The notes beneath the pieces were generated by a model, which was not told the DNA's origin, did no database searches, and saw only the letters and a program-made list of their open reading frames with translations. Below are positions 12,110-30,308 of a stretch of DNA of 58,513 nucleotides, piece after piece. Source of the stretch: Candidatus Uhrbacteria bacterium (GTDB lineage Bacteria > Patescibacteriota > Patescibacteriia > UBA9934); contig DOZH01000006.1 of the NCBI GenBank assembly GCA_003518105.1, positions 1 through 58,513 of the forward strand, given 5' to 3'. A program made the translations under genes and the position numbers. Position 1 is the stretch's first letter. Each line of letters begins with the position of its first letter.

Positions 12110-12186
12110 TGGTAGCTGGGGCGGGAATCGAACCCGCGACCTAAGGCTTATGAGTCCTTCGCTCTAACCGACTGAGCTACCCAGCT
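12110..12186 (-). tRNA. tRNA with CAT anticodon (elongator Met or Ile2)
   Basis: AGCTGGG/CCCAGCT acceptor stem, CTCATAA loop, GGTTCGATTCC T-arm, encoded CCA. Confidence 0.9.
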
Positions 12187-12431
12187 ATGCTATGACTTCC
12201 TGAATTGGCCTATTTTGGGCTTGTTGCTACGCCGACTTTTTAACTCACGGCTCTAGTGAGTCTCAAAAGCTCGGCTTGCTCCGCACCCAAACTAGTCTCA
12301 ATTCAGAAAGTCCTAGCTGATAATCGTTAACGATTGCGGCGGTACTATAGCAAGAGCTAGGCTTTTTGACAAGGCTAGGGGTTGCCTAAATCGCCCCAGT
12401 TTGTTACTATTTTCCCGCGTTGAACTATCCG

Positions 12432-12517
12432 GCCGCGGTGGCGGAATGGTATACGCGACGGACTCAAAATCCGTTTCCCGTAAGGGATTGAGGGTTCGAG
12501 TCCCTCCCGCGGCACCA
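12432..12517 (+). tRNA. tRNA-Leu(CAA)
   Basis: GCCGCGG/CCGCGGC acceptor stem, ACGGA-CTCAAAA-TCCGT anticodon arm, long variable arm, encoded CCA. Confidence 0.95.
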
Positions 12518-12581
12518 ATAATCTCTAGCTCAGCTAGGGATTTTTGTTTGACCAATTTCTCTAAATACGCTATTATCCCGC

Positions 12582-12658
12582 TGCAGGGTAGAGCAGCCCG
12601 GCAGCTCGTCGGGCTCATAACCCGAAGGTCGTCGGTTCAAATCCGACCCCTGCAACCA
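12582..12658 (+). tRNA. initiator tRNA-fMet(CAT)
   Basis: TCGGG-CTCATAA-CCCGA with three consecutive G-C pairs, GGTTCAAATCC, encoded CCA. Confidence 0.93.
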
Positions 12659-28535: not shown

Positions 28536-29240
28536 ATGTCGCTGATCCGTAAAGTACAATCGATAATCGAAAAACCAACCGCTGTTGGCTCGGCTGTGGA
28601 GTGCGCTTGTTGCGGACGAAAGAGTCGGCGGTTCTTGCCGGCGGGAGTTGAGAATAAGCGACCGTTTGCCAGGTGTGCGTGGTGCAGTAGTTTGGAGAGA
28701 CACAGACTAGTGGCGTTGATGCTCAAGAAGAATCCCTTACTGGCGAACTCGAGGATACTCGTGATTGCGCCGGAGATTCCCCTGCTCCGGATATTTAAGG
28801 ATGTGACTGGTGGCAAGGTGACGACGGCGGATTTGTTTATGGCTGGCGTCGACGTGCAAGCCGACATTTGTGCGTTGCCGTTTGCGGATGGTGAGTTCGA
28901 CGTAGTGGTTGCCAATCATGTGCTCGAGCATATTCCCGACGATAGACTCGCGATGAAGGAACTGCGACGCGTGACGAAGGCTGGTGGACGGGCGATATTG
29001 CAAACGCCGCTGTGCTGGGAGAATGAGGTGACGGATGAAGACGCGCAGGCCAACGAGGCGGAACGGGTGCGACGTTTTGGCCAGGCGGATCACGTGCGGT
29101 TGTATGGACGAGATTTTGTGACGAGGTTGCAAGCGGCTGGTTGGATTGTGACGGCGAAGGAGGTGAGTGCAATGTTTACCGCGGAGGAGATGGCGAGATA
29201 TGGGCTGGAGAGTGATGAGGTGTGGTGCGAGATTAGCTAA
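28536..29240 (+). CDS. class I SAM-dependent methyltransferase with N-terminal Cys motifs
   Basis: ADICALPFADGEFDVVVANHVLEHI; CACCG and CAWCSS. Confidence 0.88.
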   Translation: MSLIRKVQSIIEKPTAVGSAVECACCGRKSRRFLPAGVENKRPFARCAWCSSLERHRLVALMLKKNPLLANSRILVIAPEIPLLRIFKDVTGGKVTTADLFMAGVDVQADICALPFADGEFDVVVANHVLEHIPDDRLAMKELRRVTKAGGRAILQTPLCWENEVTDEDAQANEAERVRRFGQADHVRLYGRDFVTRLQAAGWIVTAKEVSAMFTAEEMARYGLESDEVWCEIS

Positions 29241-29258
29241 AAATAATCTGTCCACAAC

Positions 29259-29287
29259 TGGACAAAAGTGCTGTTTTGTGATATTGT
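29259..29287 (+). promoter_or_regulatory. sigma70-like promoter
   Basis: TGGACA-17 bp-TATTGT. Confidence 0.5.
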
Positions 29288-29309
29288 GTATAGTTACATA
29301 GAAGCAATA

Positions 29310-29544
29310 AAATTCTCATGCCTTGTCCACTAGGGGTGGACGCCAACGGCAGTGAACACAGTAAACAGTTATCGCTGGCCAAGTCTGTTACGGACTTGGA
29401 CAATGGCGGGCCAAGCTCGTCGTAGTCCGGATTCTCAAAGTGAGATGAAGTAGGAAGCGAAAGTAATCGCGCGAGCGGTGAATAACTAACCCTTAGTGTG
29501 TAAGCCTGCGTAAAAGAACAAGCTGAACCCTGTGCCAACAGGGT
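29310..29544 (+). ncRNA. unidentified structured leader RNA or ncRNA
   Basis: Nested stems 29328-37/29489-98, 29368-77/29476-86, 29379-99, 29415-19/29472-76, 29527-33/29538-44. Confidence 0.6.
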
Positions 29545-29871
29545 ATGAGGAAAAATTTCCTAAGTAGTGGCAACGACGCCTTTGTTTGCGAGAACTGCAA
29601 ACTGGCTGTTACGCCGCTAACCAATGGGAGCTACCGCAATCATTGTCCACGCTGCTTGTACTGCAAACATGTCGACGTGGTACCAGGCGATCGCTTGGCT
29701 ACTTGCCAGGGGTTGATGGAGCCGGTAGGTGTAGAGTATTCGCCCAAAAAGGGTTGGGTTATTCTCCACCGTTGCACCACCTGTAACGAACTACGGCGCA
29801 ATAAAGCAGCGTTGAATGATGCTGAGGCGGATGATTACGAATTGATCATCGCGCTTGCTAGCTCACCATAA
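29545..29871 (+). CDS. RNHCP-domain protein
   Basis: FVCENC...YRNHCPRCLYCKHVD...HRCTTC. Confidence 0.92.
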   Translation: MRKNFLSSGNDAFVCENCKLAVTPLTNGSYRNHCPRCLYCKHVDVVPGDRLATCQGLMEPVGVEYSPKKGWVILHRCTTCNELRRNKAALNDAEADDYELIIALASSP

Positions 29872-29903
29872 AGAAAACCACCCGTAGTTGGGTGGTTTTC
29901 TTG
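29872..29903. terminator. bidirectional terminator
   Basis: AAGAAAACCACCC-GTAGTT-GGGTGGTTTTCTT between convergent genes. Confidence 0.75.
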
Positions 29904-30308
29904 TTAGGCTTTGTTGTGATTGAAAAATGCATCGAAGAATGTTCTATCGTCGCTGGGTACAGGACCAAACATATTATCCTTATCGGCTTCGTGAAATAAT
30001 AAGAAAATATAAGTTAGCAAATTTATAAGAGGAATGAAGAAAAAAAATGTATAAAACCAGTTCCAGGATATACCAATATCTTGAAAACGCCTGGCCTGCA
30101 ATGATAGAAAGTGTATCGCTGAAATTAATAAAATTACTAATGCTGGTATTTTGAGAAAAATGAAGGAAGATATTAATAATAAATACGCTATAAAGCCGAT
30201 GAATAAAATAAATAAAATACTGAAAAAATATTCAACTCTATTTAATCGACCTTTAAAAATTCTGCAAAGATAATTGTTTACCTTTAAATATATACCTAAT
30301 AATGACAT
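29904..30308 (-). CDS. DUF805-family membrane protein
   Basis: GRLNRVEYF, ARRFQDIGISW, DNMFGPVP. Confidence 0.85.
   Translation of the reverse strand: MSLLGIYLKVNNYLCRIFKGRLNRVEYFFSILFILFIGFIAYLLLISSFIFLKIPALVILLISAIHFLSLQARRFQDIGISWNWFYTFFFFIPLINLLTYIFLLFHEADKDNMFGPVPSDDRTFFDAFFNHNKA

Follow-up and report, generated by a model that had tools for sequence, protein, structure and literature searches.

A 58,513-nucleotide (nt) stretch of DNA from Candidatus Uhrbacteria bacterium (contig DOZH01000006.1), here called the window, contains a noncoding stretch flanked by a methyltransferase gene (28536-29240) and a gene for an RNHCP-domain protein (29545-29871), and it raises the question of what kind of RNA lies there and what it controls. 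A sequence-only reading had proposed a riboswitch or an independent structured RNA with mutually exclusive folds. In this study, we find that the 5' untranslated leader of the RNHCP mRNA (~29296-29553) is a structured RNA of ~250 nt, and we demonstrate that its core (29349-29509) is a pared-down copy of the 16S rRNA 3' major domain's lower half. The explanation that we favour, and as a whole consider probable, is that the leader belongs to a phylogenetically wide and previously undescribed family of protein-responsive translational operators.

The stretch holds no credible plus-strand open reading frame (ORF) at 29245-29544, and its plus strand folds better than 200 of 200 dinucleotide shuffles (z = -3.65; minus strand, z = -2.43). 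A DNA search of 60 related genomes recovered it in four, namely G004 (91% identity), G005 (73%), G043 (74%, over part of the query) and G021 (70%), of which G021 represents another genus and G043 another family relative to the window. In all four an RNHCP ORF lies directly downstream, and the remaining neighbours differ. Alignment of the regions upstream of these RNHCP genes from the candidate phyla radiation (CPR) revealed structural conservation, with invariant blocks between visibly covarying hairpins, and the earlier claim of a conserved, structured, cis-acting leader is thereby supported. At the gathering score, an Rfam scan of the window returned only three tRNAs elsewhere, and at E ≤ 10 positions 29150-29700 gave chance matches only (mir-4520, RT-2 and RMST). 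The leader therefore matches no riboswitch or housekeeping RNA family of Rfam, as had been noted before; tmRNA, RNase P, signal recognition particle RNA, 6S and raiA all lacked a match at or near the gathering score.

It is the orthologues that identify the element. From other phyla we collected 80 RNHCP loci, 20 of which were put through an Rfam scan. The bacterial small subunit (SSU) rRNA model matched the leaders of Ureibacillus galli (64.4 bits) and of a Pseudonocardiales metagenome-assembled genome (54.6 bits), both above the gathering score, and the leader of the CPR relative G021 reached 35.8 bits (E = 2.7e-7). Orthologue alignments span SSU model positions 913/929 to 1367/1385, with ~310 positions deleted overall: ~275 (h31-h40) are collapsed to a 4-nt loop and ~33 of h41 are gone. 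The core retains h28, h29, an h30 stub, an h41 stub, h42 and h43. It keeps both the h28/h29/h43 and the h29/h30/h41/h42 junctions with their universally conserved strands (in the window ACAAUGG, GUAGUCCGGAU, GAAGUAGGA, AGUAAUCG and CGGUGAAU), the peripheral helices being trimmed to stubs, and these two junctions are the binding platform of ribosomal protein uS7. In the window, the core and the helices that close it are laid out as follows:

29331-29339, plus strand: 5' strand of P1, UAGGG (29331-29335), a G-U step (29336-29337) and the 5' strand of P1b, GG (29338-29339)
29349-29354, plus strand: 5' strand of Pc, GCAG-U-G, pairing with 29505-29509; 99% paired
29356-29368, plus strand: h28-like 5' strand, its lower part 29356-29364 and its upper part A29367 and G29368, pairing with 29493-29501 and with U29487/C29486
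29373-29376, plus strand: h29-like 5' strand CGCU, pairing with AGCG at 29456-29459; 99% paired, 5 of 5 pairs with compensatory changes
29377-29401, plus strand: h30 stub hairpin, whose short loop stands for 16S h31-h40; 99% paired, 6 of 7 pairs with compensatory changes
29400-29432, plus strand: junction ACAAUGG, h41 stub (29406-29411/29415-29420; 98.5% paired) and junction CGUAGUCCGGAU
29433-29445, plus strand: h42-like hairpin UCUCA-AAG-UGAGA; 5 of 5 pairs with compensatory changes
29446-29485, plus strand: junction UGAAGUAGGA, h29 3' strand, junction AAAGUA, h43 and GAAUAA; invariant blocks in the leader alignments, also aligned to 16S by cmscan and cmsearch
29486-29509, plus strand: h28-like 3' strand with the bulge AACCC, then AAG and the 3' strand of Pc, CCUGC
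29510-29532, plus strand: A-rich linker GUAAAAGAACAAG, the 3' strand of P1b, CU (29523-29524), GAA, and the 3' strand of P1, CCCUG (29528-29532)

The strand ACAAUGG is identical to 16S 1236-1242 and CGUAGUCCGGAU matches 16S ~1297-1308; the block at 29446-29485, in which h43 reads AUCGC-GCGA-GCGGU (29466-29479), has GAAGUCGGAAUCGCUAGUAAUCG...CGGUGAAUACG as its 16S counterpart. The correspondence of h28 is taken from the cmscan alignment, and GAACCC is invariant family-wide. At a few junction positions the leaders deviate systematically from the 16S of their hosts (ACAGUGG versus ACAAUGG; GRAAGUAAUCG versus GCUAGUAAUCG). They are not SSU rRNA genes, which are full-length (~1500 nt) and comprise all domains, and they sit apart from the rrn copies. 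The expectation that Rfam would offer no match holds for the window copy and fails for its orthologues, which match RF00177 (SSU rRNA) as a mimic rather than as an rRNA gene. These matches leave the novelty of the leader standing, as no such leader family is present in Rfam 15 or in the papers searched. Two leaders (L087:1228-1401 and L053:1234-1372) exceed the Rfam SSU gathering threshold (64 and 55 versus 50 bits), and where this happens annotation pipelines may label them partial 16S genes.

The structure is supported by covariation across a model-based alignment of 25 distinct leaders, from which all pair counts are taken. Standard pairs fill 95.5% of pair cells, whereas shuffles give 72.7% and sliding the partners gives no more than 42%, and compensatory double changes occur at 39 of 51 pairs, a number reached by 0 of 500 shuffles. 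The h28-like helix carries compensatory changes in 8 of 8 pairs, its upper pair being AG/CU in the window and AC/GU elsewhere. Three closing helices are family-specific: Pc (NCAG/CUGN plus one G-C pair; outer pair CG:10 UA:7 AU:3 GC:3), P1 (NAGGG/CCCUN; pair types CG:12 GC:3 AU:2 UG:2 and AU:19 GU:4 UA:1 UG:1) and P1b, which adds two pairs across what may be a tandem G·A step. Most members have C-G at the covarying pair of P1b (CG:16 GC:4 GU:2 UA:1), and the CPR has G-C or G-U there; apart from this pair, a naive column scan for further pairings was too noisy.

Several helices proposed from the single sequence can be judged against this alignment. The 9-bp hairpin at 29379-29399 is upheld comparatively as the h30 stub, and TCTCA/TGAGA as h42. 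The 10-bp pairing of CACTAGGGGT (29328-29337) with ACCCTTAGTG (29489-29498), which a direct reading finds at exactly these positions, occurs only in the window and its 91%-identical relative; family-wide these positions are 51% paired, versus 47% in shuffles, and the conserved partner of AGGG (29332-29335) is instead CCCU at 29528-29531. The proposed stems 29368-29377/29476-29486, GCTCG/CGAGC and GCGA/TCGC likewise give way, since they clash with the strongly covarying h29, h41 and h43.

To follow the family further, we used a profile search and then a covariance model of 243 positions (R1). By this model, 26 of 84 RNHCP loci carry the element (98-235 bits), in each case directly before the gene. 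These loci belong to the CPR, Bacillota, Actinomycetota, Chloroflexota and Alphaproteobacteria; the sampled loci of Trueperaceae, Oscillospiraceae, Saccharimonadia and some further groups lack it. Each of 14 whole genomes had exactly one leader, and the other R1 matches (35-60 bits) were rrn copies. An RNA-first search of 400 Bacillota genomes yielded four new leaders, each followed by an RNHCP ORF, while among 400 evenly sampled Patescibacteria the leader occurred only in the window's own genome. R1 also matches the real 16S gene in 261 further Patescibacteria genomes (roughly 50-65 bits) and all rrn copies of Bacilli; overall, real 16S scores 35-65 bits versus 94-235 bits for true leaders, and these matches demonstrate the resemblance independently. 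A model built from the five CPR cores only (R2) finds non-CPR leaders at 54-79 bits and, in 23 of 29 loci, gives a weak match (14-21 bits) to real 16S at the corresponding position; it finds nothing at leaderless RNHCP loci. On the protein tree, leader-bearing RNHCP genes occur throughout and leaderless ones fall in about five clusters. The leader label needs five changes on this tree, and 0 of 500 shuffles need as few. Since leader-bearing genes are spread over the whole tree, the association of leader and gene looks old, with repeated loss. The weakest Bacillota leader (L133, G611:C56:42705-42915, 94 bits) is followed by an RNHCP match that covers residues 10-56 only, and this gene may be a decaying or frameshifted copy.

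How might such a replica control the gene behind it? The leader can be drawn in two states, to which the following features contribute:

29313-29326, plus strand: 5' strand of helix Pa, UUCUCAUGCCUUGU, pairing with 29538-29551, the AUG included, in constrained folds
29325-29341, plus strand: hairpin P0, GUCCAC-UAGGG-GUGGAC, an alternative fold and part of the unconstrained minimum free energy structure
29527-29544, plus strand: hairpin Pt, ACCCUGU-GCCA-ACAGGGU, an alternative fold of 7 bp that abuts the AUG
29538-29551, plus strand: 3' strand of Pa, ACAGGGUAUGAGGA, containing the start codon (29545-29547)

In the closed state, the 16S-like domain is closed by Pc, P1b and P1, and Pa extends P1 outward. 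The window's Pa duplex has an energy of -24.7 versus -12.8±2.8 in shuffles, none of 200 of which reached it. A duplex between the 5' flank and the start codon is found in most of 25 members tested, with unrelated sequences across lineages, and in 14 of the 25, the window included, no more than 6 of 200 shuffled flanks attain its energy. Pa is 16 bp long in two Chloroflexota, and in G021 (CUUCAUACC:GGUAUGAAG) a codon 2 change has its compensating counterpart in the flank. In the open state, the loop of P0 hides the 5' strand of P1 and its stem hides the P1b strand, and Pt re-uses the 3' strand of P1 together with the first half of the 3' strand of Pa. Both hairpins had been correctly read from the letters, P0 as GTCCAC/GTGGAC (29325-29330/29336-29341) and Pt as ACCCTGT/ACAGGGT (29527-29533/29538-29544, its last base just before the ATG at 29545), and both withstand comparison. 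P0 is present in all five CPR copies, with compensatory changes, seen by eye, in G005 (CAUC/GAUG) and G043 (UCCUC/GAGGA), and Pt has a compensatory version in G043 (CCUGC/GCAGG).

Constrained folding of the window's leader and those of G004, G005 and G021 places the AUG in a helix in the closed fold and leaves it unpaired in the open fold (P0 plus Pt), which breaks P1 and Pa; the two lie 1-4 kcal/mol apart. Prediction and conservation together indicate that the modelled alternative fold of the CPR leaders is real. Every non-CPR member has the invariant GAACCCUG followed by a hairpin that pairs an anti-Shine-Dalgarno stretch with the Shine-Dalgarno sequence and whose base uses the CCUG of P1; Pt of the CPR corresponds to the base of this hairpin, which is reduced there. 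The closed architecture is three-way: a Pa-P1-P1b-Pc stack carries the 16S-like domain, and the Shine-Dalgarno hairpin forms a side branch. With that hairpin in the side branch and Pa on the start codon, the Shine-Dalgarno sequence and the start codon are both paired in the closed form. The earlier claim of mutually exclusive folds is thus right in principle, including the involvement of the ribosome-binding region, and wrong about the competing helices, which are not the conserved ones. In three Actinomycetota leaders (L053, L089 and L083) the position expected for the start has no ATG, GTG or TTG; the frame seems to open with an ATC (CCAUCAGC) inside Pa, and this may be a non-canonical start codon.

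Our model predicts that a protein recognising 16S-like junctions would bind the folded mimic and, once bound, would stabilise P1 and Pa, such that initiation is shut off and translation repressed. With the protein engaged instead on (pre-)30S particles, where its real target lies, the leader would relax to the open fold and RNHCP would be made.

The following features surround the leader:

29259-29287, plus strand: promoter-like site with -35 TGGACA, a 17-nt spacer and a TG-extended -10 TATTGT (consensus scan, sigma-70-like)
29545-29871, plus strand: RNHCP-domain gene, 108 amino acids, start codon 29545-29547 (Pfam PF12647, E = 6e-33)
29873-29903, plus strand: GC-rich hairpin and U-run right after the stop codon, GAAAACCACCC-GUAG-UUGGGUGGUUUUC, read directly from the sequence

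From the promoter-like site we infer a transcript start near 29294-29297; TTGACA-like and TATNNT-like hexamers share alignment columns in all five CPR orthologues by eye. No terminator intervenes between the promoter-bearing leader and the RNHCP ORF. The hairpin at 29873-29903, which the strict rule of the terminator scan did not call, is judged from its sequence likely to be a terminator, and the RNHCP gene would then be monocistronic. The upstream neighbour (28536-29240, plus strand) encodes a methyltransferase dependent on S-adenosylmethionine (Methyltransf_11) with an N-terminal Cys-rich CxxC...CxxC region, and is not kept in the relatives. On the other side, a markedly AT-rich gene for a DUF805 membrane protein (29904-30308, minus strand) lies between the RNHCP and map genes; in G004 its slot is occupied by a different ORF of 187 amino acids. 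The site, which closes the adk-map block, has the look of a variable insertion point. Elsewhere in the window, three tRNA genes cluster at 12113-12655 on both strands (Rfam). The window's own assembly (13 contigs, 85% complete) has no detectable 16S rRNA gene, which makes a comparison with its own 16S impossible.

The identity of the regulator is the next question. RNHCP is a small zinc protein, and the 16S-mimic leader is the first functional clue for its family. The proteins are ~100 amino acids long and 52-69% identical to the window protein (35 aligned sequences), whose PF12647 match (113 bits versus a cutoff of 24) contains the RNHCP motif (R31-N32-H33-C34-P35, invariant). Also invariant are C15, C18, C34, C37, H42, D44, P47-G48-D49-R50, C54, K69, C77, C80 and N86. 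An AlphaFold model (predicted local distance difference test score, 83) has the conserved cysteines (CxxC and CPxC) in its N-terminal region, together with a small beta-barrel and a helix at the C-terminus; its nearest Foldseek matches, all insignificant, are RNA polymerase subunit zinc ribbons and SH3/eIF5A-like barrels. The protein has no match in NCBIfam and none by sequence in PDB, PADLOC gave no match and PHROG insignificant ones only, and among open-access papers and preprints we found none on RNHCP or PF12647. Nothing is conserved among the neighbours of leader-bearing and leaderless RNHCP genes, and plasmids and phages carry only few, scattered RNHCP genes. Because known rRNA-mimic operators are analogous, and because the element occurs only before RNHCP, the most likely ligand by this analogy is RNHCP itself in an autogenous feedback, although we put this at somewhat less than an even chance. 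As its own ligand, RNHCP would be a factor or enzyme whose place of action on the 30S head is the uS7 site or its vicinity. We also entertain, more tentatively, a fuller version in which RNHCP is an unrecognised 30S-head factor or enzyme that docks on the h28/h29/h43-h41/h42 platform beside or instead of uS7, its mRNA carrying a "mini pre-16S" that reports the balance of rRNA and head proteins.

Several observations weigh against an operator bound by RNHCP. The ligand is proposed only by likeness to rRNA-mimic leaders that act autogenously. RNHCP, with a median pI of 8.5, is no more than mildly basic, and with its enzyme-like invariant His, Asp and Arg it does not have a typical ribosomal-protein profile; its AlphaFold model has no Foldseek match in PDB below E = 0.1. 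About two thirds of the sampled RNHCP genes lack the leader, so control by it is dispensable. The Shine-Dalgarno hairpin of the non-CPR leaders is very stable in either state (-17 to -38 kcal/mol in 80-nt folds), and the energies of the states are rough, since nearest-neighbour folding misses an rRNA-like junction fold. Lastly, the window copy has no match to the Rfam SSU model at E ≤ 10, and by plain BLAST it matches CPR 16S no better than shuffles do, and its 16S likeness therefore rests on family membership and on structure-aware covariance models.

The main alternative, though a rather doubtful one, is that the leader senses not RNHCP but free uS7, possibly with uS9, uS13 and uS19: 30S-head proteins in excess over 16S would assemble on the mimic and alter RNHCP translation, coupling an accessory factor to the status of ribosome assembly. 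uS7 binds 16S at H28-30/H38-43 (926-986/1219-1393) and crosslinks to U1240 and C1378 (PMC9958902), and the parts retained in the leader, H28-30 and H41-43 with the equivalent of U1240 and the GGUGAAU strand, fall within this published site. As a primary protein on naked 16S, uS7 nucleates the 3' domain, and in E. coli it represses the translation of its own operon via a similar, 16S-like mRNA site (PMC10931766). The 16S-like junction nucleotides are, moreover, conserved far beyond the possible need of a small new protein. Against uS7 as the ligand, a single gene per genome bears the element and it is never a ribosomal-protein gene, a ribosomal protein regulating a non-ribosomal gene would be unusual, and the systematic deviations from host 16S fall within the junctions. 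Improbable, in our judgement, is a decoy, in which the leader, perhaps abundant and freed by processing of the Pa stem, titrates RNHCP as a harmful or tightly controlled 30S-head enzyme in the manner of a type III antitoxin or substrate mimic, or else acts in trans as a small RNA. The invariant His, Asp, Arg, Lys and Asn of RNHCP may hint at catalysis, the gene is probably monocistronic, with variable neighbours, and the long Pa plus P1 stem resembles a processing stalk; however, no defence or toxin model matched, and the protein tree largely tracks taxonomy rather than rampant transfer. The missing terminator between RNA and ORF, together with a start codon built into the structure, indicates control in cis.

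With the core identified as a miniature 16S 3' major domain, the expected ligand shifts from a small molecule to an rRNA-binding protein, and nothing points to a metabolite-binding riboswitch. A large, highly conserved, multi-junction RNA that matches no known class, and whose expression platform competes with a P1-like helix, would suit a riboswitch for a small molecule or a sensor for some antibiotic or ion with its binding site on the 16S head. Yet the conserved nucleotides form an rRNA protein-binding platform instead of a novel pocket, and the one target gene per genome encodes neither a transporter nor a metabolic enzyme and has unrelated neighbours; an aptamer found with metabolism or transport genes of one compound is not what we see. 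We know of no drug whose binding site lies wholly within the retained helices, which also weighs against such a sensor, and we regard it as very improbable. The idea of a functionless, decaying fragment of a 16S gene would account for the sequence similarity to 16S, but it is already contradicted and has a negligible chance of being right: every helix covaries, the same deletions recur at the same position before the same gene across five phyla, and the extra helices Pc, P1 and Pa, which rRNA lacks, show covariation with the region around the start codon. A protein-responsive operator, with RNHCP as its likeliest ligand, therefore remains the reading that we prefer.

This reading gives RNHCP (PF12647), a widespread and uncharacterised family, a testable hypothesis, namely an interaction with the 16S 3' major domain. 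It adds to the cis-regulatory RNAs a class of large and complex fold (~200-300 nt) in at least five bacterial phyla, extends rRNA mimicry to whole multi-junction subdomains and to non-ribosomal genes, and offers the leader as a natural minimal uS7 platform on which RNA folding and the assembly of 30S can be studied. If the "mini pre-16S" idea holds, the leader would descend from the 16S 3' domain or copy it by convergence, would be flanked by a leader-trailer-like stem, and could be loaded with the RNHCP factor and perhaps uS7, uS9, uS13 and uS19. It would then be the largest natural rRNA mimic known and the first rRNA-mimic operator on a non-ribosomal-protein gene across five phyla.

Several known systems share parts of this design. 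With the lower 3' major domain of 16S itself (h28-h30 and h41-h43; E. coli 926-986/1219-1393) the leader shares the helices, their order, both junctions and the strands ACAAUGG, GUYCGGAU, GAAGNNGGA, AGUAAUCG and CGGUGAAU. It differs in its core of ~160 nt versus ~470, with h31-h40 reduced to a loop, h41 to a 6-bp stub and a lower h28 stem that varies freely, in the extra non-rRNA helices Pc, P1/P1b and Pa, and in its place in an mRNA leader outside the rrn operon. In the pre-16S leader-trailer stem (the RNase III stalk), the flanks of the 16S domain likewise pair, as Pa and P1 do over up to 16+5 bp, whereas the 3' strand of the leader's stem is the translation start site of a protein gene.

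The leaders of ribosomal-protein operons (S8/spc, S15, L1, L20 and the S7 operator) are also mRNA structures, 5' or intercistronic, that imitate the rRNA site of their regulator and control initiation in an autogenous manner. Among them, the S7 operator, which separates rpsL from rpsG in the str operon of E. coli, mimics the 16S region that the RNHCP leader copies (PMC10931766). As in these systems, a conserved structure in the 5' untranslated region stands directly upstream of the gene and resembles a defined protein site on rRNA. Unlike them, no ribosomal-protein gene adjoins the window element, the RNHCP product is not a known ribosomal protein and matches none by family, sequence or fold comparison, and a long-range helix to the start codon is present family-wide. 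To our knowledge, the known rRNA-mimic leaders copy a helix or a few nucleotides and regulate ribosomal-protein genes. They go undetected by rRNA homology models, whereas the RNHCP leader copies two multi-helix junctions, and for such a ~160-nt, two-junction replica of the 16S 3' domain before a non-ribosomal gene we found no Rfam family and no paper (open-access papers and preprints). Parallels in logic come from outside the ribosomal proteins: the ErmC methyltransferase autoregulates on a 23S-like leader site, and the operator of ThrRS mimics the anticodon arm of tRNA-Thr. Each of these non-ribosomal proteins has a stable RNA as its substrate and represses the mRNA that encodes it via a mimic of that RNA, which by analogy is the logic that we propose for RNHCP; their mimics are single hairpins, unlike the RNHCP leader, which would bring the same principle to an entire rRNA subdomain.

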